NCBI GenBank assembly: GCA_950054255.1
Contig: CATLOR010000003.1
Location: 121,816 to 185,815 of the forward strand
DNA from: an uncultured Rickettsiales bacterium
GTDB lineage: Bacteria > Pseudomonadota > Alphaproteobacteria > Micavibrionales > GCA-2720935
Direction of reading: 5' to 3'
DNA length: 64,000 bases
The first letter of the stretch is position 1; each line of letters opens with the position of its first letter. Shown piece after piece: positions 33,402 through 56,523 of this stretch. The notes beneath the pieces are model-generated. The model worked only from the letters and a program-made list of their open reading frames with translations, searched no databases and was not told where the DNA came from. The position numbers and the translations under genes are program-made.

Positions 33402-33501
33402 GAGCATTTCTTTTCATTTATTATTTTGATAAAGTATTATTTAAATCTAAAGTAAATGATGTTATGATGAAAATAATCAACCTTTTAAGGCAGACGTTAT
33501 T

Positions 33502-33975
33502 TTGTTTAAAAACAAATTAAAAACACTCTTATTCGCACTCACCTTAACACTTTCGACAACAGTGTTGAGCGTGCAGTCTATGGCGCAAAACTTAAACTGC
33601 GTCCAGCCGCTCCTTTTTGGAGAGATTGCCCGCTGTGGCAGTACAGGAACGGTAACGATCCACCCTGATGGGACATACACATCCTCGTGTGTTGATGTTG
33701 TTTTCCCACCAACAGAGGCCTTATGTGTCGTAACACAGTTTTTAGGGTTGCAAAATATCGTGATAAGCGTTGATACAACGAGCGTTTCTATTTCAAATGG
33801 CTCTGACAATATGACTGTGGATGATTTTAATATTGTTTCAAACGGCAACGGCCCAACTTTTGTGACAAATTCAACAAATACAGAAGTGCCAATTGGTGCA
33901 ACGGTTACACTTTCCTCATCTCAAGGTGCAGGTAACTATTCTGGGACTTTTACCATATCCGCCAACTACGAATAA
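33502..33975 (+). CDS. DUF4402/spore-coat-U-like secreted protein, third paralogue
   Basis: TTG start, signal peptide MFKNKLKTLLFALTLTLSTTVLSVQSMA, LLFGEI motif, and C-terminal GNYSGTFTISANYE. Confidence 0.55.
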   Translation: MFKNKLKTLLFALTLTLSTTVLSVQSMAQNLNCVQPLLFGEIARCGSTGTVTIHPDGTYTSSCVDVVFPPTEALCVVTQFLGLQNIVISVDTTSVSISNGSDNMTVDDFNIVSNGNGPTFVTNSTNTEVPIGATVTLSSSQGAGNYSGTFTISANYE

Positions 33976-33978
33976 TAT

Positions 33979-33992
33979 TTGACAAAAGTCAA
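33979..33992. promoter_or_regulatory. FixK/FNR-like palindrome TTGACAAAAGTCAA
   Basis: TTGA-N6-TCAA read in the sequence, centred about 113 bp upstream of the RTX-like gene ATG. Confidence 0.35.
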
Positions 33993-34098
33993 AAATATTA
34001 ATTCTAACTTAACCTGAATATAGTATTATCTATTATATGTAGAAGTGTATCTACATACACCCGAATTGCGGGAGAATACAGAGGAAAGATTATAAATA

Positions 34099-41843: not shown

Positions 41844-42431
41844 CTATTCGTCCGCAACAAACTCCATCTTTTCAGGATAAAGATCCTTGGATGGCAGCAT
41901 ATACATCCGCGTTTTAACACTGAAAAAATTTGGCCCCGAACAATATGTACCGCTAATCTCACGTGCGATGGTTGTCAGGGTTCTATATTTGCGCCTGCTG
42001 TACTCGTAATATCCTTGACGGCAATAAACCACATATACCTCTCCATGATATTCCCGCTCAAGAACGGTTCCAGGGATAAGTTTTGTAATCGCGCCTCTCG
42101 AGCTATTTTTTAATGCATCACTATTAAAGTCGATAGGATGGATGTGTCGCGGCAAATGCATATCAGGATTAATCGGCTTCTTCGATTCCTCATGATATTT
42201 TTCCATGATTTTCATCACGATTTGGTCAAAGGTAAAGTTGATGGAACAATCCTCACCGAATTCCATTTTATAATCATGGCGCACCTGTTTCATGCTGGAC
42301 AATCTCAGTCGCGCATATTGCTTGATCAGATACAAATCATCTTCATCTTGACCTTCCGAGCGTGGTTCTTGAAACCCTTGAAGCGTTTCCAGCCATTGGC
42401 TCAAATTAAATCTTAATCTGTCGTTACTCAT
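41844..42431 (-). CDS. DUF2924-like protein, paralogue 2
   Basis: The C-terminus GTVLEREYHGEVYVVYCRQGYYEYSRRKYRTLTTIAREISGTYCSGPNFFSVK matches the DUF2924 pattern (G-T-x-L-x-R-x-(Y/W)-x-G..Y-x-S-L-(S/T)-x-I-A-x-x-I-(S/T)-G-x-x-x-(N/S)-G-x-x-F-F). The preferred start MSNDRL forms an ATGAGTAA overlap with the upstream paralogue. The track ORF extends to 42617. Confidence 0.55.
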   Translation of the reverse strand: MSNDRLRFNLSQWLETLQGFQEPRSEGQDEDDLYLIKQYARLRLSSMKQVRHDYKMEFGEDCSINFTFDQIVMKIMEKYHEESKKPINPDMHLPRHIHPIDFNSDALKNSSRGAITKLIPGTVLEREYHGEVYVVYCRQGYYEYSRRKYRTLTTIAREISGTYCSGPNFFSVKTRMYMLPSKDLYPEKMEFVADE

Positions 42432-42972
42432 CAGCGCCTCCATACGTAATGGTGGTCTTTGATTTGAAAAACCGGACGCCAGAACAATTCGTTTGAGAAA
42501 TATGCCGCGCCACGGCAGTGATATTCTTGAACTTGATATTCCTGTAAGAAAACCCACCGTTGATACATTCAATGATGTGATCCTCGCCTTTGTATCTTTT
42601 CGTGATGATCGTGCCATCTGGGAACTTTGTGTTTGAGCCTTGGGATGCCTTTTCCAAAGGATTGTTTGGTTCGCCCTTGGTATAATGATCCATTAATCGG
42701 CTGATTATGGCTTCTCGGTAAATATTGTGCGGACAGGACTTCTTAAAGATGTGCTTATATTCTGCGCGCAGCAAATCCACATCGCACAGACGCAGCCGCG
42801 CATATTGCCGTACCAGATACAAATCCAAGCTCTGCGGCTGGCTATCAGCCAGTAAATGCGATAAAAATTGCCATGTTTGATCTTCTTTCATAAAACTACC
42901 TCCTGAAGGCATACACGCTTCAGAACCGTTCTTTATCAAGTTGTTTTCTCTGTATTTCTTCTCTTTCGACAT
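42424..42972 (-). CDS. DUF2924-like protein, paralogue 1
   Basis: GTIITKRYKGEDHIIECINGGFSYRNIKFKNITAVARHISQTNCSGVRFFKSK, plus a shared LYL(V/I)(R/K)QYARLRL motif. The preferred start MSKEKK has an AGGAA RBS. Confidence 0.55.
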   Translation of the reverse strand: MSKEKKYRENNLIKNGSEACMPSGGSFMKEDQTWQFLSHLLADSQPQSLDLYLVRQYARLRLCDVDLLRAEYKHIFKKSCPHNIYREAIISRLMDHYTKGEPNNPLEKASQGSNTKFPDGTIITKRYKGEDHIIECINGGFSYRNIKFKNITAVARHISQTNCSGVRFFKSKTTITYGGADE

Positions 42973-43344
42973 TTCATAATTTCCTTTCGGTTTTGCCTGT
43001 ATTGAATAGGTCTGCAAACCTCTCCAAAAACGACGACGTAAATTGCAACTTTCTTGTCGTTATTTTTCTGGTACGGGGTTTGCTCGCAAAAAACCGATGG
43101 AATGTGAAAAAATTTGATTTTGTTTAAAATGAACCAGATTTAGGTAGTATTAGTCCCCTTAGAGCGACCAAAATAAACAGAAAGCGCCCCCGAAGAGGAC
43201 GCTTTTTGTATCTGACATTTAATTGGTTTGGCTGTTGTTCTAGTCTTCTGCCTTATTAAATGTATCTATGTATCTGATTATGTGTGTAAGCGATACCCCG
43301 AAACGAACTCTTGAACTATTGCCCTTCGCGAACAGAAATATGAC

Positions 43345-43707
43345 CTAACGAATATCGAGATTTTCGTCAATTTCTGGATCAGGATCATCCCACGATCCAG
43401 TGCATTGTTCGTAATAATCAACATGCTTTTGGAAGCGCGGATCTTCACCTTGAATGAAATAAGTATAAAGACGATTTACTATTTTCTTCATTAGAGACTT
43501 CATCTCAGGGTTTGTAATTCTAAAGGCTTCGTTCCAAGGAATCTCGTTCCCTTCGGCGTCAATGATTTTAACATCTGAATAATCACCAACTTTTGTCACA
43601 GGTGTTGTGCCAGCATGAATATTTTCAAGTTCAGTATGACGTACACACATCGCTGTTAGCGTTTTAGCAAATCTACCTGCCATTTTTTGTTCTGTTTTTG
43701 AATTCAT
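43345..43707 (-). CDS. Hypothetical 120-aa protein, last gene of the minus-strand trio
   Basis: ORF with a 3-nt gap to the upstream AlbA_2 gene. I recognised no family. Confidence 0.35.
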   Translation of the reverse strand: MNSKTEQKMAGRFAKTLTAMCVRHTELENIHAGTTPVTKVGDYSDVKIIDAEGNEIPWNEAFRITNPEMKSLMKKIVNRLYTYFIQGEDPRFQKHVDYYEQCTGSWDDPDPEIDENLDIR

Positions 43708-43710
43708 AGC

Positions 43711-44328
43711 TTACTCATCGTCTGTTTTAAAATTATTGTACTCTTTTGTTGTGAGAGATCTTGTGGCGTTTCCATCCCTAATATAAAAATCGCCCCTCTG
43801 GTTTGTGAATACATGCTTTGCTGATTTCTCAATCTCAATTCTTAGGACTTCTTTATCATCCACCCGCTCAAACTTTATGCGGTACAGTCGATCAACTGCG
43901 CCATCTATATTGCTTCGGATTGCGCTCCTTAGGGCTAACTCAAACTTATCTTTGTTACGCTCACGTTTAATTAGGGTCTCTATTCCAACTACAGTGGAGT
44001 TATCGGCAACTCCCAATATAATTTCACCGCCGTCAGAGTTTGCAAAAGCGACAATGGTCTTAACCAGACCATCGTAAGGGGATTTTCTTTTGCTGTCCTC
44101 ACTAAGCGTTTCTTTAAATTCTAATCGGCCATGCTCCTTCTCGTTTAGAAGTTCTTGAATGTCACGCCATGGCTTTTCTCCTTTTGGGAATTGTTTGTCA
44201 CCGATTAAATAGCCAGCTCCAGCTGCTAGTAATGCCGGTACCCATCCACCTAAAGGCAGTGCTACCAATGCCAGCCCTGCCGATATGCTGCCGACTTTAA
44301 TTTTTCTATCCATATTACGTTGCTCCAT
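43711..44328 (-). CDS. Membrane-anchored AlbA_2 (Schlafen-like, divergent-AAA) domain protein
   Basis: N-terminal hydrophobic segments (GSISAGLALVALPLGGWVPALLAAGAGYLIG), then LEFKETLS..IVAFANSDGGEIILGV, which is typical of AlbA_2. Confidence 0.6.
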   Translation of the reverse strand: MEQRNMDRKIKVGSISAGLALVALPLGGWVPALLAAGAGYLIGDKQFPKGEKPWRDIQELLNEKEHGRLEFKETLSEDSKRKSPYDGLVKTIVAFANSDGGEIILGVADNSTVVGIETLIKRERNKDKFELALRSAIRSNIDGAVDRLYRIKFERVDDKEVLRIEIEKSAKHVFTNQRGDFYIRDGNATRSLTTKEYNNFKTDDE

Positions 44329-45802
44329 ATTTTCTTAGTACATCCAATAGTAAAACCATCGCATAAGTATCCTGCTTACAATATTCGATAAGGTTGTCCC
44401 ATAAGGCTGGTTGTTCAGTTTCTGGCAAGATTCCATTTATGAACGCATTGTATTGCAGCATAGCATCACCACCGTGAGATATTTCTAGATCATCATAGCT
44501 GAGATCAGTAAAAGCAGGTAATACGGCTTTAATCGATGCTGAGCTTTTTTGGTTTGGATTATAGAGCCAGCGTTTTCTAAATGGCTCGAGCAAATCAATT
44601 ACCCTAGAATTAATGGCGTTTAAGGCAGGTGCATATTCAGGAAAATCACTGGCCAGATCATTGTTGCGGGCAATCTCAAAAGACTGGTTATAAACTATGA
44701 CGTGACCGTCCACGCCACATAGCTCGATAAGTTTCTCAGCAAAAAGTCGGCGCGGGTCGGTCTGCTCTTTATGCAAATATTCATGATGCACCAATTCTGC
44801 GTCTGGACTTTCTTGTATATGAACGGAGAATTGAAACGGTATCTGTTGATATGGCCTCGTTCCATCAAAAAGAGGAATGGCTGGATTAATCGTCTCATAA
44901 TCCAAAAAATACAGCGGATATTGTAGATGGTCTAGAAAGCCTTTTACGTTGGCGCGATCAATGATGGTCTCCCCGCTTAAATAGCTTTCGACATCCAAAC
45001 TCTTTACACCGCCCGGGCGAATATGATCAGGTAGTTTTTCAATAGCTACACCGTGCTGACGCGACAGATCTTCGGCTTTCTTCTTTTGAAAGACATCATA
45101 CACAGAATAATCCGGTACATGCTTCCAGCAATGATCACGGTAATCACACTCAAACGGTGCGAAACACCGCGCACCGATTGATACGTCTGGCTCTTTTTTG
45201 CGCTCGAGAACATAGCCAAGCTGTCCAGCGACAGCCTCAACTTCAGCTTGCCTAGAAAAGACGTCACCAGATATATCTTCAAGTTTAAACAAAAGCTTTG
45301 GATCAATATCCCCAGCGCGGATATAGCTATTATCCAACACCATCATAAAGCACTTGCGGATTTTGTACCCAGCGCCGTTAAAGACATGATATTGAAACGC
45401 CATGTCATCGAGGTGATAATCTTTGACACTGGTAGAGCTTTTAACCTCGATCAAATCCCATTCATTACTCCCGCTGACGCGCTTTAAAATGTCAATGCGG
45501 GAATAGCCACCATCAATCGGGTGCATTGCTGTAGCTTCAAAAATAATATCATGACCGTCTTTGATAAATTGCTGTGTAGATTCAATCGCGCCTTTCACAT
45601 CCCAATAGGCATTTTTGACCTCAGCCCCACCGTCAAAATAGGACATAGCCAGCGCACCAATCTCATTCCCCGCATCAAACCGCGCTTGCGTCTGCGCATC
45701 AATCTCTGGGGCAAGGTCTTTACGATGGCGATACAACCACAAAGCCTTCGGGCATTGAAGACCCTTTACGTACTGAGATTTTGAGATTGTATGCTTATCC
45801 AT
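44315..45802 (-). CDS. DUF2779-like protein: Cas4/RecB-type nuclease with Cys cluster plus DnaQ-like exonuclease region
   Basis: N-terminal ISKSQYVKGLQCPKALWLY, a Cys triad CFAPFECDYRDHCW, then YFLDYETINPAIP (DxE) and CKQDTYAMV (late Asp). Confidence 0.55.
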   Translation of the reverse strand: MDKHTISKSQYVKGLQCPKALWLYRHRKDLAPEIDAQTQARFDAGNEIGALAMSYFDGGAEVKNAYWDVKGAIESTQQFIKDGHDIIFEATAMHPIDGGYSRIDILKRVSGSNEWDLIEVKSSTSVKDYHLDDMAFQYHVFNGAGYKIRKCFMMVLDNSYIRAGDIDPKLLFKLEDISGDVFSRQAEVEAVAGQLGYVLERKKEPDVSIGARCFAPFECDYRDHCWKHVPDYSVYDVFQKKKAEDLSRQHGVAIEKLPDHIRPGGVKSLDVESYLSGETIIDRANVKGFLDHLQYPLYFLDYETINPAIPLFDGTRPYQQIPFQFSVHIQESPDAELVHHEYLHKEQTDPRRLFAEKLIELCGVDGHVIVYNQSFEIARNNDLASDFPEYAPALNAINSRVIDLLEPFRKRWLYNPNQKSSASIKAVLPAFTDLSYDDLEISHGGDAMLQYNAFINGILPETEQPALWDNLIEYCKQDTYAMVLLLDVLRKYGAT

Positions 45803-45883
45803 GAATAGAAAGTTACTTGATTATTCTTAAATTTTCCACTATTTTCTCATTACTACCCATTTACACCAAAGATCAGGAAAGTC

Positions 45884-46075
45884 ATGGATAACGACATAAT
45901 GACAATGAAAGAGGTCGCTGAGTACCTCAAATTAAATGAAAAGACAGCCTATCGTTTAACCTCAGACGGTAAGCTTCCAGCATTTAAAGTTGGCGGTAGC
46001 TGGCGTTTTCGTAAATCAGAGATTGACGAATGGACAAAAAAGCAAAGCAATATGCAGAACCAGCAGGATAAATAG
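45884..46075 (+). CDS. Excisionase/MerR-type helix-turn-helix DNA-binding protein
   Basis: 63 aa. MTMKEVAEYLKLNEKTAYRLTSDGKLPAFKVGGSWRFRKSEIDEW fits the HTH_17 pattern. Confidence 0.7.
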   Translation: MDNDIMTMKEVAEYLKLNEKTAYRLTSDGKLPAFKVGGSWRFRKSEIDEWTKKQSNMQNQQDK

Positions 46076-46078
46076 ACC

Positions 46079-48745
46079 ATGAGAATAGCGCAGATCGAAA
46101 AAAATCTTTCAGAACTGGTGAAAAGCATTTCACCAGATGAATTTGTTTACGATCTCTTGCTGGCTTACGGCACGCCAAAAACGACTGTCACGTTGCTTAA
46201 AAAGGGTAATCGAAACCTTTCCAAAAAAGACGGACAAATCATCCTTAAGCGCAAATTATTCTTTCAAGAAACACAAGAGCAAGATCTGCACGGTCTGATT
46301 GACAGCTTAAAAAATGATGATGCCACCCACCGCCATGACCCACGCTTTATTGTGGTAACGGATTATAAAACCTTACTAGCCATTGATACAAAAACGGATG
46401 ACACGCTCGATATAAAAGTTAACGAGATTAACAAACACCCGTTCTTTTTCGGGCCGTGGGCAAAAATTGAGAAAAACACCCATTACAACGAGCAAGAAGC
46501 CGATGTTAAAGCCGCCGAGAAGATGGCGAAGATCTATGATGAGATTTTAAAAGATAACGCATTTGAAACAAAAGAAGATCTACATGGCCTTAATATTTTC
46601 CTCTCGCGCCTGTTATTCTGTTTCTTTGCTGAAGATACAGGTATTTTTAGAGGCGAGAATGTTTTCACAAACTATGTCAGCACTTCTCAAGAAGACGGTA
46701 GCGATCTTGATGATTACTTGAACAAACTGTTCGAGGTCTTAAACACTGCCGATCATTCCGCTTATCCCGATTACCTCTCAAAATTCCCGTACGTAAATGG
46801 CGGATTATTTGGTGATCGATATTTCGCACCAAAATTCTCGCGTAAAGCACGCCGCATGATTATCGAATGTGGTGAGCTGGACTGGGCAACCATCAACCCT
46901 GATATTTTCGGGTCAATGTTCCAAGCTGTGGTTCATACAGACCAGCGCAGTAGCATGGGGCAGCATTACACCTCCGTACCGAATATCATGAAAGTGATTG
47001 AGCCACTTTTCCTAAACGAGCTGCGTGAAGAGTTTGATAAATATTACGAGAATCAGAAAAAACTGGAACAGCTTCTTGCTCGCCTTGAAAAACTCCGCAT
47101 CTTTGACCCGGCTTGTGGATCGGGTAATTTTCTAATTATTGCCTATAAGGAAATCCGCGAACTGGAGATGGAGATATTCCAGCGCATTCAGGAGGTAACA
47201 ACCAACCCATCACTGCCGTTCTCCCGTATTCAGCTTTCACAATTTTACGGGATTGAGCTGGATGATTTCGCGCATGAAGTTGCCATTCTTTCCTTGTGGC
47301 TAACCGAACACCAAATGAATGTGAAATTTGAGGAAGTCTTTGGTCAGACAAACCCAACGTTGCCATTGAAAGAAGGTGGAAACATCGTTTGTGACAACGC
47401 TACCCGCATTTCATGGGAAGACGTATGTCCAAAAGATAAAAATGCTGAAATTTATATCTTAGGCAATCCGCCTTACCAAGGAGCAAGAAGGCAAGATGAG
47501 CAGCAAAAGGCTGATTTGTCGCATGTGTTTTCAGAGTTTAAAACATACAAAAACCTTGATTATATATCCTGCTGGTTTTGGCTTGGTGCGGAGTACATTC
47601 AAGGAAATAACAGTAAAATCGGCTTAGTAAGTACCAACTCAATATGTCAGGGGGAACAGGTTTCTTTGTTGTGGCCTTTTATATTTAATAAAGAGGTTGA
47701 AATTGGGTTTTGTCACCAATCTTTTAAGTGGACAAATAACGCAAGAAACAACGCAGGAGTAACTTGCGTGATCGTTGGTTTGCAAAGCCAAAAAGAGAAA
47801 CTGAAGGAAATATATTCCGATGGTATTTGCAAAAAAGTTAAATCAATCAATGCTTACCTCACAGAAGGAAACCAGACTATTGTTGGAAGACGCAACAAGC
47901 CATTGTCTAGCAACCTAAATCATATGCCAAAAGGTAATATGCCGTACGATGGTGGGCATTTAATTTTAGATGAAACAGAAAAAAATGATCTAATATCCAA
48001 CTATCCTACTGCTAAAAAGTTTATAAAAAAGTTGGTTGGGGCAAAAGAATTTATACATTCATTAAAACGTTACTGTCTTTGGATTGAAGATAATTCTTTA
48101 AATGAAGCACTTGCAATAAGCCCCATAAAAGAACGTATTGAGAAAGTTAAAAAAATGCGTTTGGATAGTTCTGATACTGCTGCAAACAGATTGGCAGAAA
48201 GAGCGCATCAATTTAGAGAGATAAATCAGACAAAAACAAGCTCTATTGTAGTTCCATCTGCAACATCGGAGCGTAGAAAATATATCCCGATGGGCTTTGT
48301 GAATGATGATACTATCGTTAGTAATCTTGCCTTTGTTATTTATGATGCTGAACCGTATTTGTTTGGTATTCTTTCATCAAAAATTCACCTTGCGTGGGTT
48401 AAAAGCGTTTCAGGGCAGCTAGAAACTCGAATCAGATATTCGTCTGCCCTATGTTACAACACATTCCCTGTGCCAGATCTCACAGAAAAGCAAAAAGAAA
48501 CGATTACCACGCATGTTTACAATGTGCTGGAAGAGCGTGAAAAACATTCCGAAAAAACAATGGCGGAGCTGTATGACCCCGACAAAATGCCGGACGGGTT
48601 AAGAGAGGCACACCACCACCTCGACCTCGCCGTTGAGCGTTGCTATCGCTCAAAACCATTCACCAGCGATGAAGAACGCCTTGAATACCTTTTCAAACTC
48701 TACGAAGACATGACCGCCAAAGAAAAATCAGGAGGTCTGCTTTGA
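46079..48745 (+). CDS. MmeI-family (type IIL/IIG-like, YeeA-like) N6-adenine DNA methyltransferase
   Basis: 888 aa. SAM motif DPACGSGNF (47105-47131) and catalytic NPPY (47465-47476). LDYISCWFW..VSTNSICQGEQVSLLW is typical of MmeI/YeeA-like enzymes. N-terminal D95-x7-D103-T-K105 may be a PD-(D/E)XK motif. Confidence 0.8.
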   Translation: MRIAQIEKNLSELVKSISPDEFVYDLLLAYGTPKTTVTLLKKGNRNLSKKDGQIILKRKLFFQETQEQDLHGLIDSLKNDDATHRHDPRFIVVTDYKTLLAIDTKTDDTLDIKVNEINKHPFFFGPWAKIEKNTHYNEQEADVKAAEKMAKIYDEILKDNAFETKEDLHGLNIFLSRLLFCFFAEDTGIFRGENVFTNYVSTSQEDGSDLDDYLNKLFEVLNTADHSAYPDYLSKFPYVNGGLFGDRYFAPKFSRKARRMIIECGELDWATINPDIFGSMFQAVVHTDQRSSMGQHYTSVPNIMKVIEPLFLNELREEFDKYYENQKKLEQLLARLEKLRIFDPACGSGNFLIIAYKEIRELEMEIFQRIQEVTTNPSLPFSRIQLSQFYGIELDDFAHEVAILSLWLTEHQMNVKFEEVFGQTNPTLPLKEGGNIVCDNATRISWEDVCPKDKNAEIYILGNPPYQGARRQDEQQKADLSHVFSEFKTYKNLDYISCWFWLGAEYIQGNNSKIGLVSTNSICQGEQVSLLWPFIFNKEVEIGFCHQSFKWTNNARNNAGVTCVIVGLQSQKEKLKEIYSDGICKKVKSINAYLTEGNQTIVGRRNKPLSSNLNHMPKGNMPYDGGHLILDETEKNDLISNYPTAKKFIKKLVGAKEFIHSLKRYCLWIEDNSLNEALAISPIKERIEKVKKMRLDSSDTAANRLAERAHQFREINQTKTSSIVVPSATSERRKYIPMGFVNDDTIVSNLAFVIYDAEPYLFGILSSKIHLAWVKSVSGQLETRIRYSSALCYNTFPVPDLTEKQKETITTHVYNVLEEREKHSEKTMAELYDPDKMPDGLREAHHHLDLAVERCYRSKPFTSDEERLEYLFKLYEDMTAKEKSGGLL

Positions 48746-49773
48746 GTGACCTGCTTGATTTAACCGTTGATACAAAGTCTTTGCGAGTTAGTAATCGCGA
48801 AGGTGATCGAAGAGAGTTCAAAGCTCTATTCGACAACAATGCTCTCTGGAAGTACGCAAAAACTATGGTTTCATTCGCAAACAGGGATGGCGGGGTGATA
48901 TTTTTTGGCGTAAAGGATCGCCCCAGAGAATTGGTAGGATTAACGGGCAATAACCCCGATGAGCTTGTTTTTGCTCATTTTTTAAAAGAATATTTTGAAC
49001 CAGAGATACGCTTCACTCTCGATACGCTTAAAATAGCGGGAAAAGACCTTCTTTATGTTCTAATCGAGGCTTCTCCAAATAAACCAGTCATTTGTAAAAA
49101 ACGAAAAGTATCCAAAAATAAAGAATCTGGGAAAACGGATAAGGAGCTACTTCGCGAAGGCGCTATTTATTATCGTTATTCATCTTCAACAGAAGAAATT
49201 AAATATCCGGAGCTTACAAAAATTTTAGAGGAGAAAGTGCAGAAAGTCTTTCATTCTATGGTCGATAACATAACCCTTCTCAATAAAGTTGGCTATGATC
49301 GTGCCGCTGTTGTAGATGCCAGCGAGTTGAGTGGAAACGATAAAAGCACATCCGTCTATATAACAACAGAAACAGCAAAAAATATTAATTGGATTCAAAA
49401 AGGGCGTTTTTCTGAAACAGAAGACCAGTCAGAAAAAGCATATTATGTGACTCGTGAAATTGAAGTTAGGCATGGCGTTGAAATTTCCAACCCAGTGCCC
49501 ACAGACCCAGGTTTAACGCATACCCTTACACAGACAGCATTAAGACAAGCTATTTCTTTATCAGGAAATCATCTTGATGCAGTTTTATGGAAGTTGGGGC
49601 TGTTAAATAACCCGAAATATCATTTGTCTGGCCAGCATGGAAAAAACAAATGGCATAAATTCACTGAAGCTACAAAAGACAAAGTTTTAGAAGCCTACCC
49701 TTTAGACCTTACTGGTAGACTTAATAAGGTCAAAGATGTGGTGAATGAATATCTACAAAGCCAAAGGAAATAA
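48742..49773 (+). CDS. AlbA_2 (Schlafen-like) domain protein
   Basis: TTG start preceded by AGGAGG, with a 4-nt overlap with the MTase stop. REFKALFDNNALWKYAKTMVSFANRDGGVIFFGVKD is the AlbA_2 pattern. Confidence 0.6.
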   Translation: MSDLLDLTVDTKSLRVSNREGDRREFKALFDNNALWKYAKTMVSFANRDGGVIFFGVKDRPRELVGLTGNNPDELVFAHFLKEYFEPEIRFTLDTLKIAGKDLLYVLIEASPNKPVICKKRKVSKNKESGKTDKELLREGAIYYRYSSSTEEIKYPELTKILEEKVQKVFHSMVDNITLLNKVGYDRAAVVDASELSGNDKSTSVYITTETAKNINWIQKGRFSETEDQSEKAYYVTREIEVRHGVEISNPVPTDPGLTHTLTQTALRQAISLSGNHLDAVLWKLGLLNNPKYHLSGQHGKNKWHKFTEATKDKVLEAYPLDLTGRLNKVKDVVNEYLQSQRK

Positions 49774-49784
49774 AGGAATAAATA

Positions 49785-51704
49785 ATGCCAAATATAGTAG
49801 ACGTCACATATGCCCAAACAGGGGAAAGCACCAAAACCAACTCAATGGGTATGCGTGAAATGCAAGAGCGTGCTTACTCTGCACGTGACGCTCAATATCT
49901 TCTTCTGAAAGCACCTCCTGCTTCAGGTAAATCTCGTGCGTTGATGTTTATTGCCTTGGATAAGCTGATTAACCAAGGCTTGAAAAAAGTGATTGTGGCC
50001 GTCCCTGAAAAATCTATCGGTGGTTCATTTGGAAATACTGATCTTAAAGAATACGGCTTCTATGCAAACTGGGAACCTAATGAGAAATACAACCTCTGCA
50101 CTCCGGGAGGCGATAAAAGCAAAGTGGATGCCTTTATGCGCTTTATGGAAGGTGACGAAAAAATTCTAATTTGTACGCATGCAACATTACGCTTTGCCTT
50201 TGAGCAGATCGATGAGAGCAAGTTTGATAATTGCCTACTTGCGATTGATGAATTTCACCATGTATCCGCAGATAAAGAAAACAGTCGCTTGGGTGGATTG
50301 CTACATTCGATAATGACTAAATCCAGCGCTCACGTGGTAGCGATGACAGGTTCATATTTCCGTGGCGATGGCGTTCCAGTACTTACACCAGAAGACGAAA
50401 AGAAATTTATACCAGTTACCTATAATTACTATGAGCAGTTGAATGGCTATACGCACCTGAAATCCTTGGGGATTGGATATCACTTTTATCAAGGTCGCTA
50501 CACTACAGCAATTGCCGAGGTTCTAGATACTGATAAAAAAACAATTCTACATATTCCCAGCGTGAATTCAGGTGAGTCAACAAAAGAGAAATATGACGAA
50601 GTTGACACAGTATTAGGCATTCTTGGCGAGGTTGATTATCAGGATGCTGAAACAGGTATTATATACCTAAAACGTCATACAGATGGGAAAACACTAAAAA
50701 TTGCAAACTTGGTAGAGGAATATCAAAGAGATCGCGTGCAGGAATACCTGCGTAATATTAAATCAGCTGATGATATTGATTTAATTATCGCTCTTGGCAT
50801 GGCAAAGGAAGGCTTTGACTGGCCGTATTGTGAGCATGCCTTAACGGTCGGTTACAGAGGGTCTTTGACTGAGGTTATTCAAATTATAGGGCGTTGTACG
50901 CGTGATAGCGATAACAAAACCCACGCGCAATTTACTAATCTGATTGCGCAACCCGATGCGGAAGATGGCTTAGTTACATTATCCGTTAATAATATGCTCA
51001 AGGCCATTACATGCTCACTTCTGATGGAGCAAGTGTTAGCACCTAATTTCAAATTCAAAACAAAGCTCTCAGATGACGATGAAGCAAAACCCGGAGAATT
51101 CAAAATTCGTGGTTTCAAAGAGCCTTCATCGAAAAGAGTAAAAGAGATTGTTGAATCTGATTTAAATGATCTAAAGGCAAGAATTCTTCAGGATGATAAA
51201 ATGATTAAGGCGCTGCCGGGTAATGTTGATCCAGAAGTGATTAACAAGGTGATGATTCCGAAGATTATCAAGATCAAATATCCAGAGCTATCAGATGCAG
51301 AAGTGGAAGAAGTACGCCAACATGTGGTCGTTGATTCCGTCATCAAGAATGGAGAAATCAAGGAAACTGGTGATAAACGCTTTATTCGGATGGCAGGTAA
51401 ATTTGTCAATATTGATGACCTGCACGTCGATCTGATTGATAGCGTTAATCCGTTCCAAGCCGCCTTTGAAATCCTATCTAAATCTGTAACAGCACAGGTC
51501 TTCCGAGTAATTCAGGAGGCAATTGAAGCCACCCGTATTCAAATGACGGATGAAGAAGCCATGCTGCTATGGCCAAAGATTAAGAGCTTTGTTCAAAACA
51601 ATAATGGTCAGCAACCAAATATCAATGCCGTTGACCCATTGGAACAACGATTAGCTGAGGCTCTGATATATATTCAAAACCAGCGCAGACAACAAAATTT
51701 ATAA
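49785..51704 (+). CDS. SF2 DExH-box helicase (YeeB-like / type III res-like)
   Basis: Motif I APPASGKSRA, motif II DEFHH, motif III MTGS, and motif VI QIIGRCTRD. Confidence 0.8.
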   Translation: MPNIVDVTYAQTGESTKTNSMGMREMQERAYSARDAQYLLLKAPPASGKSRALMFIALDKLINQGLKKVIVAVPEKSIGGSFGNTDLKEYGFYANWEPNEKYNLCTPGGDKSKVDAFMRFMEGDEKILICTHATLRFAFEQIDESKFDNCLLAIDEFHHVSADKENSRLGGLLHSIMTKSSAHVVAMTGSYFRGDGVPVLTPEDEKKFIPVTYNYYEQLNGYTHLKSLGIGYHFYQGRYTTAIAEVLDTDKKTILHIPSVNSGESTKEKYDEVDTVLGILGEVDYQDAETGIIYLKRHTDGKTLKIANLVEEYQRDRVQEYLRNIKSADDIDLIIALGMAKEGFDWPYCEHALTVGYRGSLTEVIQIIGRCTRDSDNKTHAQFTNLIAQPDAEDGLVTLSVNNMLKAITCSLLMEQVLAPNFKFKTKLSDDDEAKPGEFKIRGFKEPSSKRVKEIVESDLNDLKARILQDDKMIKALPGNVDPEVINKVMIPKIIKIKYPELSDAEVEEVRQHVVVDSVIKNGEIKETGDKRFIRMAGKFVNIDDLHVDLIDSVNPFQAAFEILSKSVTAQVFRVIQEAIEATRIQMTDEEAMLLWPKIKSFVQNNNGQQPNINAVDPLEQRLAEALIYIQNQRRQQNL

Positions 51705-51715
51705 GGTGTGATTGA

Positions 51716-52870
51716 GTGGATAAGGACGATTTATTAAAACTGATAAACGATGATGATTTAGGGCTATTAAATGTTAAGCCTAAGCAATCTGCTATTGTCA
51801 CTGCAGATGAGCGCCTTATTGCATCCTTTACTCAAATCAATCAGTTTGTTGCAGACAATGGACGAGAACCTGAAAGTGGTAAAGGCATTCAGGAACACCA
51901 ACTCTATGCTCGTCTTAACGGTATTCGTGAGAGTGCTGAGAAGATGGAAGCGCTTGCAAGCCTTGATGGACATGGCTTACTCAATGTCCAACGCACAGAA
52001 ATAAGCTCTATTGAAGATATTTTTGACGATGATGATTTGGGTATTTTGGGTAACGAAGCGGAGAGCATCTTTACGCTGAAGCACATCTCAAAAGAAACAA
52101 CGATGCCTGATTATGTTGCCAGTCGTAAGCCGTGTAAAGATTTTGAAATATTCGAGGCTAAATTCACTCAATGCCAGGCAGACCTGACAGCTGGAAAAAG
52201 AAAGCTATGGCCGTTTAAGAACGAACAACAAATCCAAAAGGGTTATTTCTTTGTTCTTAAAGGTGTTCTACTTTATGTGGCTGATGTTGGTGAAGTTGAG
52301 AAAAGTAACGGTAAAAAGAATGCTAGGTTACGCTGTATTTTTGAGAATGGAACAGAATCCGACATGTTGTTACGTTCATTGGCAGCCGAGCTTTATAAGG
52401 ATGGCCGTCGCGTAACTGAGCACGAAGATCAGTTGCTGGATGGCTTTAGCAATATTAACGAAGAAGACGAAGCAACAGGTTATATCTACGTCTTGCGCTC
52501 GTTAAGCACAAAGACTGATATTCAGGAACTTAACAACCTCTATAAAATTGGTTTCTCAACTGTTCCTGTAGAACAACGCATTAAGAATGCGGAAAACGAA
52601 CCAACATATTTAATGGCACCGGTTCATATTGTGGAGGCTTACCAGTGCTACAATATGAACCCACAAAAATTGGAACAGTTGCTTCACACATTCTTTGGGT
52701 CATCCTGTTTGAATATTGATATTTTCGATGGTAATGGCCAACGCCACACACCTCGTGAATGGTTCATTGCACCATTAGATATAATTGAACAAACGATACA
52801 TTTCGTGCTGAACGGCGACATTGTGAATTATCGTTATGATTCAGATAAACAAGAAATTGTGGGGAGGTAA
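51716..52870 (+). CDS. T5orf172 / GIY-YIG-superfamily (Mug113-like) protein, YeeC-like
   Basis: GTG start. The C-terminal half reads GYIYVLRS..LYKIGFSTVPVEQRIKN..EQLLHTFF..REWFIAPLDIIEQTI, which is the T5orf172 pattern. Confidence 0.65.
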   Translation: MDKDDLLKLINDDDLGLLNVKPKQSAIVTADERLIASFTQINQFVADNGREPESGKGIQEHQLYARLNGIRESAEKMEALASLDGHGLLNVQRTEISSIEDIFDDDDLGILGNEAESIFTLKHISKETTMPDYVASRKPCKDFEIFEAKFTQCQADLTAGKRKLWPFKNEQQIQKGYFFVLKGVLLYVADVGEVEKSNGKKNARLRCIFENGTESDMLLRSLAAELYKDGRRVTEHEDQLLDGFSNINEEDEATGYIYVLRSLSTKTDIQELNNLYKIGFSTVPVEQRIKNAENEPTYLMAPVHIVEAYQCYNMNPQKLEQLLHTFFGSSCLNIDIFDGNGQRHTPREWFIAPLDIIEQTIHFVLNGDIVNYRYDSDKQEIVGR

Positions 52871-52873
52871 AGA

Positions 52874-54256
52874 ATGCTTGATCAATCCTTCTCTGCTGAA
52901 AATTTCCGTAAAATTTTTGACTACGAAAACAGGAAAGGTAATTATCTTGCCGGGAGTTTCTTTCCAGACGCGAATGAAAAATCAAGAAAAATCAAACGAT
53001 GTAATGATGAGTTAAAGGAGCTCAAGAAACCCTCTGATGAAGATAAAGTTGATGCATATACTCAAAAGAAACAGGAGTTGGTTGAAAAGAAGACAAATTT
53101 AGAGCAGGAAAAAGAACAAATACTCGAAGATGCTTTTAAGAAGGTTAGCGATACAGCAACTCAAAAAAACTTTTCTTTAGATCTCGAAGATAGAGATATC
53201 AACGGCAAGAAAGTTTATGTTGCAGCGAATTCATCTGGAGACTATTCGGGGCTCGCTAAAGAGAAACGACTAAATTTAGCAGCCCAATTTTTTGCATTAA
53301 AACAGACACAGAAAAATATCAGTAAATTATATAAAGTTAAGCAAGCGGATCGTTATAATATAGTTTGCCAATTGAGAGAGGCTCTAAGAGGTCGTTTTCC
53401 TAAATATATTATTAGAACCGATATTTCGAGCTTTTATGAGAGCATTCCAAGGGTTGAATTAATAAAAAAAATCAATGAGGACAATCTTCTAACTTATAAT
53501 TCTAAGAAAACAATAAAACAGATCCTATATAAATATGGAACACTCCCTGGGGGGAGTTTCAAGGGCATCCCAAGAGGTGTTGGAATAAGCGCGTACCTCT
53601 CAGAATTACACATGCGCGAATTGGATGAAGAGATGCGAAACGCACCAAATGTTTTATATTACGCAAGGTATGTCGACGACATAATAATCATATACACTAA
53701 CGCCAACCCTAGCGTGAAATCATTGCGAGCATTCTGTAGAAACATTATTGAAAAGGGGCTGAAAAGAAACCGTCAAAAAACCTCTCTTATAAAGGCGAAT
53801 GGAAGTACACCGCACACCATTGATTATCTAGGCTATAGTTTTAGATTCGGCACCGGTGACGTTAAAGTAAACATAACAAAATCCAAAGTTGATCGGTATA
53901 AAAGTAAGATTGATCTATCTTTTTATGATTATGAAAAAAAATTAAAATATAATGAGAAAAAAGCTCGACGACTGCTAATAAAGCGAATTAAGTTTCTAAC
54001 TGGAAATACACGCTTAATTGGCAATAAGAAAAATATTCGAGTGGGGATATACTTTTCTAATAAGATTCTCACCGATCATTCTTATTTAAAGGGGATGGAC
54101 TGTTATCTAACTCACAAAGTATCTTCATTGCAAAATGAGCGAGCAAAAAACAGACTTAGTAAGCTGTCCTTTCAAAAAGGGTTCGTCGAGAAAACCTTTT
54201 ATAAATTTTCAAAGGCAGATTTAGAAAACATTATGGAGGCTTGGAAATATGCCTAA
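52874..54256 (+). CDS. Reverse transcriptase 1 (UG3/Drt3a-like, tentative class)
   Basis: 460 aa. RT motifs DISSFYESI, GIPRGVGISAYLSELHM, YARYVDDIIIIY (YVDD at 53669-53680), RNRQKTS and IDYLGYSF. There is an N-terminal charged coiled-coil and a GGGAGG RBS. Confidence 0.8.
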   Translation: MLDQSFSAENFRKIFDYENRKGNYLAGSFFPDANEKSRKIKRCNDELKELKKPSDEDKVDAYTQKKQELVEKKTNLEQEKEQILEDAFKKVSDTATQKNFSLDLEDRDINGKKVYVAANSSGDYSGLAKEKRLNLAAQFFALKQTQKNISKLYKVKQADRYNIVCQLREALRGRFPKYIIRTDISSFYESIPRVELIKKINEDNLLTYNSKKTIKQILYKYGTLPGGSFKGIPRGVGISAYLSELHMRELDEEMRNAPNVLYYARYVDDIIIIYTNANPSVKSLRAFCRNIIEKGLKRNRQKTSLIKANGSTPHTIDYLGYSFRFGTGDVKVNITKSKVDRYKSKIDLSFYDYEKKLKYNEKKARRLLIKRIKFLTGNTRLIGNKKNIRVGIYFSNKILTDHSYLKGMDCYLTHKVSSLQNERAKNRLSKLSFQKGFVEKTFYKFSKADLENIMEAWKYA

Positions 54257-56375
54257 GCGTCTTAAAATCAGATATAAAAAAGAGCGTGCCATCTTAGCGG
54301 ATGTCTTACCTTATGAAACCCCAGTGACTTTTACGAATCGTCATGTTTATGACTTTATAGAAAAGTTTAAGGTTACCATTAGTGATGACACGCTATCATG
54401 GAAGTCAAATAACAATGATGCATTAGATAAAATCATTCATATCTTATTTGCATTGCCAGAGAACCCAAGTCGTCTGTCCACCCAAAATGGCGGCATTAAG
54501 TCTTATGATTTCAATAACGGTGGCCAACCTAGGCCAGAGTACCCATTAATACCATTTGGCTATAAAATAAGTCACAAGCAAAAGGAGTTTCGTGAACTCA
54601 ATGTTCCTCATACCCGTAGTCAGCTACTCGTAGCCAACTTTTATGAACAGTATAAAGAAAGCATTATCTATTATTGTTCGCAAAGCTCTTTTTCAATACG
54701 CGCACCTCGAAAAATAGCCACACATAAGTTCTACAAGGACAATTTGCACAAATCAAAATTATCTGATGATGCTTCAATCATTGAAGAAAATGATAAGGAG
54801 TACAAGAACCAGAAATCTTTCTTTTCATACAAAGACTACAGCAATATCCATAAATTCTATGAGTCTCCACGATACCACCGTTGCGAGAAAAAATATAACA
54901 AACTCCTGAAGCTAGATATCTCCAAATGCTTTGATAGCATCTACACACATTCAATTGCATGGGCTCTTCTCGGAAAGCAAGAGGTCAAAGAAAACCTTAA
55001 AACCGTGGATAATACTTTTGCAGGCCAATTTGATAGGTTAATGCAGAATATTAACTATGGGGAAACGAATGGCATCATAATAGGTCCAGAACTATCCAGA
55101 ATCTTTGCTGAGATTATTTTGCAGGCTGCAGACAAAAAGGTCGAATTTCTTCTGAAAACAGAGCATGGCCTTAAAAACAAAGTAGATTTCGAGATGCTTC
55201 GTTATGTGGATGATTATTTTATCTTTTACAATGAGGAAGATGATAAAAGTACAATTGTAGAAACCGCCCAGCATGTTCTTAAAGAGTATAAGTTACACCT
55301 TAATTCGGCCAAAGAAGTTGAATATGAGAAGCCTCTCATAACAGAAATGTCTATCGCCAAAGAACGAATATCCAAACTCTTAGAAAACGAACTAAAATAT
55401 AGATTAGAGACAGTAGAGGAGGAAAGCGACGAAGGGCCTATTGAATACGAAAAGGGCAGCATCTACGTTAACAGCAAGAAGCTAATTATAGACTTCAAGA
55501 CTATTATCAAGGAGTGCCAGGTCGAATACAAAGATATGCTTAATTACTCCTTTTCAATTATTGAAAGGAAGTGTCATCAAATCATCAATGATTTCACAAA
55601 AGCCCACCCAGATCATCGATCAGAAGAAGGTTTTATAAAAGCGATCGTTGCCCTTCTGCAGTTTATATTTTTTATTTATTCAGTATCCCCAAGGGTCAAT
55701 ACCACAATAAAGCTTTGTATAATCTTAAAGACATTCCTGTCCTATTTGAAGGGCTCAAAATTCTGTCCTGAGAAAAATACACAAACTTCTAATATCAAGA
55801 ATTCTGAGAACAAGCACAGAGTTTTTAAATGCATCTACGACAATATTACTCTTGTTATGAAGAAGAATAAATGTAGCGATGCAACGCAAGTTGAAACTTT
55901 ATATTTGTTGATTGCACTGGCAGAGTTAGGAAAAGAATATTGGTTGGATGAAGATATTTTAGCGGAATACTTTGGTATAGAGGACTTGGAGAGTGAAAAT
56001 CCAAGAAAGAATAGCTGCCTAAATTATTTCTCCTTAACGGTACTTTTATATTATATGAGAGAAAAAGCCAAATACCGTAATTTGCGGAATTTAGTTGAAA
56101 AAATGGTGATTGAAAAGTTTCAGTGTGATGAAAAGATTCGAAGAAAGAGCTCCGAGCATACGATGTTGTTTTTTGATATGCTTTCGTGCCCTTTTATAAA
56201 AACTGAGACTAAGAAAAAAATTCTGCAGGCATATAATATAAACGATGCAAATCTGCAGAATGACCTGATTAATTTTCAAGTGGCTAACACTCCCAAACAA
56301 TTATGGTTCACAACTTGGGAAGGCTTCAATTTTAGTAAAGAGCTTGACGCAAAGCGTAGCCAAGAAGTATATTAA
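54249..56375 (+). CDS. Reverse transcriptase 2 (UG8/Drt3b-like, tentative class) with long C-terminal extension
   Basis: 708 aa. RT motifs LDISKCFDSIYTHSI, GIIIGPELSRIFAEI, LRYVDDYFIFY (YVDD at 55203-55214) and LNSAKE. Overlaps RT1 by 8 nt (ATGCCTAA). Confidence 0.8.
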   Translation: MPKRLKIRYKKERAILADVLPYETPVTFTNRHVYDFIEKFKVTISDDTLSWKSNNNDALDKIIHILFALPENPSRLSTQNGGIKSYDFNNGGQPRPEYPLIPFGYKISHKQKEFRELNVPHTRSQLLVANFYEQYKESIIYYCSQSSFSIRAPRKIATHKFYKDNLHKSKLSDDASIIEENDKEYKNQKSFFSYKDYSNIHKFYESPRYHRCEKKYNKLLKLDISKCFDSIYTHSIAWALLGKQEVKENLKTVDNTFAGQFDRLMQNINYGETNGIIIGPELSRIFAEIILQAADKKVEFLLKTEHGLKNKVDFEMLRYVDDYFIFYNEEDDKSTIVETAQHVLKEYKLHLNSAKEVEYEKPLITEMSIAKERISKLLENELKYRLETVEEESDEGPIEYEKGSIYVNSKKLIIDFKTIIKECQVEYKDMLNYSFSIIERKCHQIINDFTKAHPDHRSEEGFIKAIVALLQFIFFIYSVSPRVNTTIKLCIILKTFLSYLKGSKFCPEKNTQTSNIKNSENKHRVFKCIYDNITLVMKKNKCSDATQVETLYLLIALAELGKEYWLDEDILAEYFGIEDLESENPRKNSCLNYFSLTVLLYYMREKAKYRNLRNLVEKMVIEKFQCDEKIRRKSSEHTMLFFDMLSCPFIKTETKKKILQAYNINDANLQNDLINFQVANTPKQLWFTTWEGFNFSKELDAKRSQEVY

Positions 56376-56470
56376 ATATGCGCTTCACTCAAATTATTAA
56401 CACACACATGCGCACGTTAGTCTTTCTGAAAAAGTTAGTATAACATTGGCACCACTGGAGAGTGGTGCCT
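56376..56470 (+). ncRNA. Candidate RT-associated structured non-coding RNA (hypothesis)
   Basis: The non-coding tail directly after RT2 has a TGCGC (56379-56383)/GCGCA (56410-56414) stem. This stem encloses a loop with ACACACACA (56400-56408). A perfect 9-bp hairpin follows at 56448-56469. There are no expression data. Confidence 0.3.
56448..56469. terminator. GC-rich hairpin GGCACCACT-GGAG-AGTGGTGCC between the convergent RT2 and lysozyme genes
   Basis: Perfect 9-bp inverted repeat read in the sequence. No adjacent U-run on the plus strand, so it may be structural rather than an intrinsic terminator. Confidence 0.45.
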
Positions 56471-56523
56471 AAATGTTTCCGATCTTCTTCTCTATTTTTT
56501 AAGGCATAATCTAAAAATACTAC

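Follow-up and report, generated by a model that had tools for sequence, protein, structure and literature searches.

Introduction

Two described bacterial systems resemble the two halves of a 10.6-kb, seven-gene cluster that we analysed in a stretch of 64,000 nucleotides (hereafter the window) from contig CATLOR010000003.1 of an uncultured Rickettsiales bacterium. The first is the YeeA/YeeB/YeeC cluster. Morgan et al. (2009) described a second set of MmeI homologues without PD-ExK, whose first 100 residues are different; a helicase and a GIY-YIG gene "invariably" lie beside them, as YeeB and YeeC do beside YeeA (PMC2731913). YeeA was later renamed DnmA and the cluster was shown to be conserved; in B. 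subtilis the dnmA-yeeB-yeeC genes failed to protect against three phages and were termed a restriction-modification (R-M) relic (PMC9973331). In Vibrio crassostreae, yeeAB protects against some phages (bioRxiv 10.1101/2021.05.05.442762).

The second is the type 3 defence-associated reverse transcriptase system (DRT3), represented by EcoDRT3 of E. coli (Gao et al. 2020; Mestre et al. 2022, PMC9226505; PMC13174585), whose mechanism was worked out only in 2026. It consists of two overlapping reverse transcriptase (RT) genes, a then b, and the literature places a non-coding RNA with an ACACAC template directly downstream of drt3b. EcoDRT3 defence works alone in E. coli. Its duplex is kept low by the host double-strand exonuclease RecBCD, and when phage Gam blocks RecBCD the duplex accumulates and growth stops; no terminal effector has been identified, and a double-strand exonuclease is needed for tolerance (PMC13174585). 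In a parallel drawn there with RecBCD guards such as retron Ec48, EcoDRT3 is predicted to fire on inhibition of the double-strand exonuclease by a phage.

The window cluster contains one module of each kind. Like DnmA/YeeA-YeeB-YeeC, it has a nuclease-less MmeI-family methylase, a superfamily 2 (SF2) helicase and a T5orf172/GIY-YIG protein of similar sizes on one strand; unlike it, the window cluster is led by an HTH_17 gene, has an AlbA_2 gene in the slot between methylase and helicase, and bears DRT3 at its 3' end. The likeness to EcoDRT3 extends from the overlapping RT genes to YVDD in both RTs, counterparts of E22, R241 and the C-terminal Tyr, and a downstream RNA with an exposed ACACAC loop. 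The window DRT3 differs in having no recognisable promoter region of its own, in starting 3 nt past the stop of a restriction-type gene, in proteins that are only about 40% identical to an E. coli plasmid homologue, and in its host, which belongs to a marine alphaproteobacterial lineage.

Exchange of the DRT3 cassette among sister elements

An initial annotation of this DNA, made from the sequence alone, had named the seven products as a helix-turn-helix (HTH) protein, an MmeI-family methylase, an AlbA_2 protein, a helicase, a T5orf172 protein and two RTs. Pfam and PADLOC agree with all of these identities, and the comparison with YeeABC also holds, since the methylase, helicase and T5orf172 genes keep that order on one strand with similar sizes. 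The annotation had left two options, one integrated system or two stacked systems sharing a promoter, and our evidence favours the latter. We propose that the cluster comprises two separable systems of known kinds, placed head to tail and most probably carried on one transcript, a reading to which we assign a probability of about 0.78. The gene identities, motifs, RNA, cassette boundaries and exchangeability on which it draws were all directly observed.

The clearest evidence comes from sister elements, by which we mean elements at the same prophage position that retain the HTH-methylase-slot-helicase-T5orf172 core as well as the lysozyme and tail genes (loci are designated here by L numbers). 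These elements keep the core and swap or omit DRT3. In L004/L005, where the T5orf172 protein is 95% and the helicase 94% identical to those of the window, nothing stands behind the core and the lysozyme gene follows 5 nt on. In L256/L257 (T5orf172 97%) the place of DRT3 is taken by a gene for a 1836-aa DUF4011/AAA_11/12/MTES_1575/GreA-B protein, in L008 (86%) by one for a 1850-aa version of the same protein, and in L258 (93%) by a 68-aa gene and an SMC-like ATPase. Finally, L259/L260 (91%) have nothing coupled to the core, which lies there within an integrative mobilisable element. Because the add-ons are exchanged behind the YeeC-like gene while the core stays 86–97% identical, the two modules appear to be separable systems.

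The boundary of exchange is sharp. When six junctions were aligned, homology ran through the T5orf172 stop codon and then ended, and the add-on gene starts 3–5 nt after this stop in the window, L256, L008 and L258. The last T5orf172 codons contain a conserved GGGGAGG (GTG GGG AGG TAA), which is the Shine-Dalgarno sequence for the next gene. Judging from this alignment, the last codons of the YeeC-like gene (window 52859-52876) are a shared docking point for add-ons. On looking for a target-site duplication in the form of direct repeats on either side of the DRT3 cassette, we found only short chance repeats.

The DUF4011 protein (L008 11121-16673; L256 11160-16670) combines an Upf1-like AAA_11/AAA_12 helicase with an MTES_1575 nuclease and, at its C terminus, a GreA/GreB domain. 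Host GreA is required for EcoDRT3 defence (PMC13174585), and the GreA/GreB domain of the DUF4011 protein may be a coincidence.

More distant relatives give the same picture. A search with aligned YeeC-like sequences, limited to a single genome of each species, gave 80 Yee loci (53–95% identical), and none of them has a Drt3a or Drt3b homologue; 53 of the 80 extend at least 3.6 kb downstream. DRT3 was also absent from the six sampled plasmid loci of the divergent Yee clade that elsewhere adjoins DRT3 (nucleases 63–73% identical), and the idea that this clade always carries DRT3 was dropped for that reason. Seen from the Yee side, conserved co-occurrence of the two modules thus amounts to none of the 80 loci, none of the six plasmid loci and none of the five sister elements. 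Another co-oriented gene lies within 60 nt 3' of T5orf172 in 21 of 63 Yee loci, and these are other defence genes, namely OLD-type ATPases, PDDEXK_1, KAP, GmrSD, Shedu and SIR2.

The closest relatives of the window Drt3a are found in other company: L085 and L086 (78% identical) stand behind a 3' fragment of a Res gene, L087 (62%) lies among housekeeping genes (lptD/pepA), and L252 (53%) and L253 (50%) follow, by 11 and 3 nt, the Res gene of an SNF2-DUF4391-Mod-Fic-Res operon. Since sister elements swap DRT3, both sets of Yee loci lack it and the nearest Drt3a proteins are located elsewhere, the suggestion of one integrated system fails to find support. Separability is also in line with reports that neither module needs the other to work: EcoDRT3 does so in E. 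coli, as does yeeAB in V. crassostreae.

The Yee-type module

The methylase matches all five MmeI-family Pfam domains and the PADLOC model REase_MTase_IIG (1043.7 bits), and aligns with MmeI (PDB 5HR4) at E = 3.7e-186. The helicase-spacer, methylase, target-recognition and C-terminal domains align end to end. The alignment starts only at residue 83, placed onto MmeI residue 103, which leaves the N-terminal 82 residues unaligned to MmeI residues 1-102; in contrast to MmeI, which holds D70/E80/K82 there, the first ~100 residues of the window enzyme are unmatched, and reading the translation by eye revealed no E-x-K triplet in residues 1-100. By these comparisons the methylase is a member of the nuclease-less YeeA/DnmA class and not a bifunctional MmeI-type IIG/IIL enzyme. 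With the nuclease region of MmeI unmatched and no E-x-K seen, cutting would have to fall to separate subunits.

The target-recognition domain (window 47867-48481, residues 597-801) is only 40–48% identical between sister elements, as against 89–100% for the N- and C-terminal domains of the same proteins, and its GC content is lower (0.364). It looks as if this domain has been swapped between elements, which would change the recognition sequence. Such swapping would be expected of an R-M specificity subunit on which diversifying selection acts. It argues against a dead relic and is indirect support for the predicted site-specific m6A methylation and methylation-sensitive restriction.

Wherever the 80 Yee loci extend far enough upstream, they show the methylase-helicase-T5orf172 order on one strand; the one exception is L065, with its methylase downstream. 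The HTH gene also precedes the methylase by 3 nt in L256, L258, L259 and L008. Where seen in full, the YeeB-like helicase is 61–95% identical to that of the window and the T5orf172 gene always follows directly; in PADLOC the window helicase has only partial matches to the PbeA and Cas3 models. The YeeC-like protein has 7597 homologues in our search. The Yee module is not novel, as it belongs to a conserved cluster that was already described (PMC2731913, PMC9973331). Two other candidate assignments were rejected: the PADLOC Hma models gave no match to the seven proteins at E <= 0.01, and for MADS there were only weak matches of the HTH protein to mad1 (35.7 bits) and of the methylase to mad2 (56.3 bits), with no other mad genes.

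Nor is the AlbA_2 gene between methylase and helicase, an insertion of which the initial annotation knew no description, unusual for these loci. In 51 loci both the methylase end and the helicase start were visible; the two genes abut in 20 of them, and in the remaining 31 the slot is filled by 0.6–5.1 kb of same-strand genes. AlbA_2 leads among the 63 open reading frames (ORFs) of the slot, with 7 occurrences, and the other families there include HATPase_c_4, RhuM, YhcG/DUF1016, Mrr_cat, PDDEXK_3, Fic and TIR. The slot of L006 likewise contains an AlbA_2 gene, 96% identical, and the sister elements have Mrr_cat, RhuM-like or small unknown genes. The AlbA_2 gene is an optional passenger in the usual variable slot.

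The DRT3 module

The assignment of the RT pair to DRT type 3 is confirmed by the PADLOC models for Drt3a and Drt3b, by the motifs of both proteins and by the RNA downstream. On these grounds the second module is a complete DRT3, comprising both RTs as well as the non-coding RNA. The YVDD of Drt3a is at residue 266, and of its 2551 homologues some are named 'antiviral reverse transcriptase Drt3a' at NCBI. Drt3b matches the solved Drt3b structures 9z6y/9z6z (E = 2.7e-71; 9z6y over residues 100-707) and 26cz (E = 1.8e-78). Its YVDD lies at 319 with R284 35 residues ahead, just as R241 of EcoDRT3b lies 35 residues before Y276; an LPYE motif provides E23 (compare E22), and the C-terminal Tyr708 would correspond to the priming Y666 of the E. 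coli enzyme. These residues were matched by spacing and motif, not from structure.

For comparison we used a metagenome scan with a Drt3a alignment, which returned 80 loci; adding L085-L087 gives 83 loci, 53 of them with at least 1.2 kb of upstream sequence, and with L252-L255 the set comes to 87 loci, 57 with at least 1.2 kb upstream. A scan of viral contigs with the single Drt3a protein found nothing, and alignment-based scans of viral contigs added few informative loci. Wherever drt3b was found (76 of 83 loci), it follows drt3a on the same strand.

The initial annotation ended the operon at 56470. The last ORF stops at 56375, and 56376-56470 is the DRT3 non-coding RNA, which that annotation had not recognised. 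In its first stem, P1, 56379-56383 are paired with 56410-56414, and the template loop that this stem closes ends in the ACACACACA template (56400-56408). Next come a weak middle hairpin and a strong terminal one, in which 56448-56456 are paired with 56461-56469. The predicted fold energy is -29.5 kcal/mol (z = -3.8). The RNA differs at hardly any base in L085 and L086, even though their proteins are only 78–84% identical to those of the window, and comparison with these two loci shows a compensatory one-base-pair deletion in the terminal hairpin. Such conservation indicates that the RNA is under strong purifying selection. The window RNA is short beside its relatives, many of which have an extra template-loop hairpin that it is without.

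Across the family, ACACAC occurs 24–65 nt past the drt3b stop in 51 of 52 loci. In a 15-sequence alignment, a structure of three hairpins and a loop-loop helix has 89% of its cells paired, against at most 48% in slid controls, and 16 of its pairs show compensatory change. The three-hairpin structure was built from 13 well-aligned rows together with single-sequence folds, the window and L085 rows being misaligned in P1; RNAalifold run on the 15-sequence alignment recovered the long-range helix only. At a permissive threshold, no Rfam family matched between 40000 and 64000. It is from the conservation in L085 and L086, the ACACAC of 51 loci and the covariation that we identify 56378-56469 as the DRT3 RNA.

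Most DRT3 RNAs have CUCCGUCC in the template loop, complementary to AGGGACGG in the loop of the terminal hairpin. This would allow a pseudoknot (columns 17-22 with 97-102 of the RNA alignment; roughly 56384-56390 with 56457-56465 in the window), for which 91% of cells are paired and three pairs show compensatory change. It is weaker in the window, where CUUC/CACUC faces GGAG/GAGUG.

Operon structure and transcription

The tight packing of the genes is real. The six junctions measure +3, -4, +11, +11, +3 and -8 nt by the ORF coordinates, exactly as first listed, and the Shine-Dalgarno sequences then pointed out are present as well (AGGAGG before the TTG at 48742, GGGGAGG before 52874, GGAGG before 54249); the remaining starts have weaker AGGA-type sites. 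The -8 junction is the overlap of drt3a and drt3b at 54249-54256. A mosaic origin had also been suggested, from a drop in GC content from about 45 percent to 30-35 percent, and is borne out. The GC step exists and is smaller than was thought: the Yee-type genes have a GC content of 0.40–0.41 and the RT genes of 0.35–0.36, a fall of five points at the junction.

There is no terminator-like and no strong promoter-like site at the junction between the YeeC-like gene and drt3a. The whole window has 18 promoter-like sites, compared with 33.5 in shuffled controls. One of them, a weak site at 52917-52945, lies downstream of the drt3a start codon. Another, at 56344-56373 (TTGACG, 18 nt, TATATT; 10 of 12 matches), stops 6 nt ahead of the first paired base of the RNA and overlaps the last drt3b codons, because of which any conservation of this site is inseparable from coding constraint.

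The 3-nt gap, the Shine-Dalgarno sequence inside yeeC and the clean junction suggest a single transcript, and from this layout the seven genes and the RNA are most probably transcribed as one unit. The sequence upstream of the cassette is native yeeC, common to elements without DRT3, and the cassette therefore seems to have brought no promoter with it. Since it has no recognisable promoter of its own and begins 3 nt past the YeeC-like stop, DRT3 expression most likely relies on read-through from the upstream operon.

DRT3 behind restriction-type genes elsewhere

The initial annotation knew of no description of these two modules in a single transcription unit, and named as refuting its reading that they never co-occur elsewhere. 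This condition does not hold, as they co-occur at seven to eight other, divergent loci, yet the link is optional. Yee-type genes stand directly upstream of Drt3a in L089, L090, L133, L140, L145, L149 and L158 and are 37–48% identical to those of the window, and L167 has an MmeI-family methylase upstream of Drt3a. Counted from the DRT3 side, co-occurrence is 7–8 of 87 loci, or 5–6 of the 57 with at least 1.2 kb upstream. Between L089 and L133 the helicases are 80% and the nucleases 63% identical and the Drt3a proteins only 40%, and the window Yee genes belong to a different clade from both. Because the Drt3a proteins of L089 and L133 differ in this way and the Yee clade of the window differs again, the Yee/DRT3 junction must have arisen at least three times.

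Yee-type genes are not the only restriction-type neighbours. DRT3 lies behind type I hsdS/hsdR genes in L120, L146, L116 and L110, and more weakly in L117 and L100; behind type III-like Res/SNF2 genes in L252, L253, L085, L086, L125, L126 and L128; behind an Eco57I-type enzyme in L123; and behind DUF499 in L088. Altogether, in at least 23 of the 87 loci the next gene upstream is of restriction type and co-oriented with DRT3. Among loci whose upstream sequence is long enough to judge, the share is about a third, and the gap between the restriction-type gene and DRT3 is often only -8 to +13 nt. The three plasmid DRT3 loci are mixed: one has a type I system downstream, one is adjacent to a Hachiman-like DUF1837 and DEAD-box helicase pair, and one has no defence neighbours. 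The placement of DRT3 behind restriction-type genes is not mentioned in PMC9226505, PMC13174585, PMC13314766 or PMC9973331. The coupling of DRT3 to restriction-type genes is recurrent, has arisen independently more than once and is optional, and its recurrence suggests a possible selected layering of restriction and abortive infection, unless it reflects no more than the general clustering of defence genes.

Two of the loci, L160 (22-1327) and L161, contain a group II intron RT/maturase fragment immediately ahead of a small gene, and this small gene and drt3a share 8 nt.

A further neighbour is DUF2779, which has Cas4-like PD-(D/E)XK and RNase H-like domains. DUF2779 and PDDEXK_1 tie as the commonest Pfam family among 149 DRT3 neighbours, with 6 occurrences each; DUF2779 adjoins DRT3 in L088, L089, L090, L095, L096 and L146, which fall in five Drt3a clusters, and tblastn found it in none of the 80 Yee loci. 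We considered that DUF2779 might come and go with DRT3, as both are present in the window and neither in L008. This was dropped on finding the sister element L256, which has DUF2779 without DRT3 and so shows the link to be optional.

Discussion

If both modules act as their studied relatives do, a layered defence can be envisaged. The operon would be expressed from one promoter region in the only sizeable non-coding gap upstream of the seven genes (45803-45883). The methylase would recognise a short asymmetric site through its exchangeable target-recognition domain, methylate adenine there and so mark host DNA. On unmarked DNA it would recruit the SF2 helicase and the T5orf172/GIY-YIG nuclease, leading to cutting; this scheme is drawn from Morgan et al. 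(2009) and from the yeeAB-dependent phage resistance of V. crassostreae. By homology to EcoDRT3, Drt3a with its RNA would copy the ACACAC template into poly(dT-dG), and Drt3b would make the complementary poly(dC-dA) in a protein-primed reaction without a nucleic-acid template. Should a phage inhibit the host exonuclease, the poly(GT/AC) duplex would build up and growth would be arrested. Restriction would thus come first, with abortive infection as back-up.

Several observations weigh against this picture of stacked but separable systems on one transcript. L089 is a compact methylase-helicase-T5orf172-Drt3a-Drt3b-RNA-DUF2779 operon with overlapping junctions, and three or more independent joinings of Yee-type genes to DRT3 hint at something beyond accidental stacking. 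The promoter-like site at 56344-56373 might drive the DRT3 RNA separately, and a promoter may also lie within the yeeC 3' end, which is beyond the reach of a consensus scan. The trigger logic of E. coli may not transfer to the exonuclease of this host, be it RecBCD or AddAB. Moreover, activity of the Yee module cannot be assumed, because dnmA-yeeB-yeeC of B. subtilis gave no phage protection. The first two of these points would fit one integrated system, in which the Yee helicase-nuclease, perhaps with DUF2779, and DRT3 depend on each other: YeeB/YeeC or DUF2779 could, for example, take care of processing or removing the poly(GT/AC) duplex in a host that lacks RecBCD, or could be the effector that this duplex switches on, with the methylase providing self-marking. 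The seven loci with Yee-type genes directly upstream of Drt3a, a junction of the L089/L133 kind that arose more than once, the prominence of DUF2779 and PDDEXK_1 among DRT3 neighbours, and an EcoDRT3 that has no identified terminal effector and needs a double-strand exonuclease for tolerance all speak for it. We nevertheless consider mutual dependence unlikely, since sister elements replace DRT3 by unrelated genes while their Yee core stays 86–97% identical, L256 keeps DUF2779 without DRT3, the 80 and six Yee loci lack DRT3, most DRT3 loci lack Yee genes, and EcoDRT3 functions alone in E. coli. A further reading, to which we give a low probability, is that DRT3 cassettes are preferentially recruited, promoterless, to the 3' ends of restriction-type operons (Yee-type, type III Res, type I hsdS/hsdR and type IIG) and that the pair works as a unit. 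DNA ends made by restriction would then feed the host double-strand exonuclease, and phage inhibitors of this exonuclease would cause duplex build-up and abortion; in a stronger form, YeeB/YeeC, DUF2779 or small PD-(D/E)XK proteins would replace the product-clearing of RecBCD in hosts without it. The recurrence and the independent origins of the coupling are the evidence here, and functional dependence is hypothetical.

The two remaining explanations are less probable than those above. The cluster could be a decayed or domesticated relic, with the methylase as an orphan epigenetic regulator and the other genes no longer defending, as the term R-M relic for the B. subtilis genes (PMC9973331) would have it. 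What makes this very improbable is that all seven ORFs are intact with their catalytic motifs kept, that identical proteins recur on more than 20 contigs, that the target-recognition domain is swapped while the rest of the methylase is 89–100% identical, that the RNA is under strong purifying selection, and that the cluster belongs to a defence hotspot of the prophage where add-on genes are actively turned over. Least probable of all, with hardly any weight, is a set of independently transcribed neighbours in a defence island whose tight spacing has no regulatory meaning. Defence genes do cluster generally, and the weak promoter-like sites at 52917-52945 and 56344-56373 could be cited in its favour; against it stand the 3-nt gap with the Shine-Dalgarno sequence inside the upstream gene, the native yeeC sequence at the junction that elements without DRT3 also have, the position of the first site past the drt3a start, and the deficit of promoter-like sites relative to shuffled sequence. 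We therefore retain two separable systems, arranged head to tail and most probably cotranscribed, as the best explanation.

Taken at face value, the cluster illustrates how prophages put together layered immunity out of parts that can be exchanged. Its conserved restriction-like core offers two slots for cassettes, and the add-ons of the second slot reuse the last codons of the core as a ribosome-binding site. As both systems are of known kinds, the remaining interest is organisational, and lies in the precise docking point and in the recurrent placement of DRT3 behind restriction-type operons. If the coupling is selected, it would offer a testable link between restriction, phage exonuclease inhibitors and DRT3 firing, with DUF2779 and the small PD-(D/E)XK proteins as candidate partner nucleases.

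A precedent for an abortive-infection gene inside an R-M operon is PrrC in the EcoprrI type Ic locus. PrrC is bound to the restriction enzyme until a phage anti-restriction peptide sets it free. In the window, too, an abortive-infection module would be tied transcriptionally to a restriction system as a second layer. The difference is that the tie seen between DRT3 and the Yee genes is in their gene arrangement. Another likeness to type I loci is that the Yee slots hold the same accessory families, namely RhuM, Fic, AlbA_2, Mrr and PDDEXK.

Genomic setting of the cluster

The 10.6-kb cluster is a prophage's variable defence region, flanked on one side by the end of the prophage and on the other by its lysis and tail genes. 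Upstream of ~41700 the sequence is ordinary chromosome with a type I secretion/RTX cluster and a two-component system, and after the seven genes the minus strand carries genes for a phage lysozyme, a GpJ-like tail protein, NlpC/P60 and DUF1833. It is from the flanking chromosome and these lysis and tail genes that we place the cluster in an accessory region at one prophage end. At its right border, homology to the DRT3 relative L085 fades at ~56505-56510, and the lysozyme stop codon lies at 56524. A tRNA scan of the whole window for an attachment site returned none, and there is no integrase gene inside the window either. The divergent three-gene unit to the left of the operon is probably a further defence module of the same island. 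The features of the region are collected in Table 1.

Table 1. Coordinates of the cluster, its RNA and the adjoining features in the window
Feature	Coordinates	Strand	Evidence or remark
DUF2924 region at prophage end	41844-43017		two overlapping ORFs on other contigs; may be a frameshift
Divergent three-gene unit outside the operon: DUF2779 (495 aa), AlbA_2 (205 aa), 120-aa protein	43345..45802	-	
81-nt divergent intergenic region between the DUF2779 gene (-) and the HTH gene (+)	45803..45883		presumed promoter/operator; function inferred
HTH_17 protein (MerR/AlpA-type), 63 aa	45884..46075	+	Pfam E = 3.8e-19; presumed operon controller
MmeI-family N6-adenine methylase/specificity subunit, YeeA/DnmA class, 888 aa	46079..48745	+	
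AlbA_2 (Schlafen-like) accessory gene, 343 aa	48742..49773	+	Pfam E = 1e-18
YeeB-like SF2 helicase, 639 aa	49785..51704	+	Pfam DEAD, ResIII, Helicase_C
YeeC-like T5orf172/MUG113 (GIY-YIG superfamily) nuclease, 384 aa	51716..52870	+	Pfam
Drt3a (UG3, class 2 RT), 460 aa	52874..54256	+	PADLOC 386.6 bits
Drt3b (UG8, class 1 protein-primed RT, alpha-repeat domain), 708 aa	54249..56375	+	PADLOC 675.5 bits
DRT3 non-coding RNA, 92 nt	56378..56469	+	sequence, fold, conservation
Conserved T-rich tail, right end of DRT3 cassette	56470..56510	+	alignment with L085

No DNA nearly identical to the cluster or to either flank was found in plasmids, E. coli genomes or phages. Related elements occur in marine alphaproteobacterial genome bins labelled Micavibrio sp., and an identical YeeC-like protein with the same neighbours is present on more than 20 metagenome contigs. 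As identical proteins and neighbours recur in this way, the cluster is not an assembly artefact.

The type I secretion cluster upstream (29860-39111) consists of a C39-peptidase ABC exporter, an HlyD protein and an RTX protein of 1670 aa, in which 29 stretches match the RTX calcium-binding repeat family. Through its ATPase domain, the exporter gave spurious PADLOC matches to mad3, mad8 and AriA.

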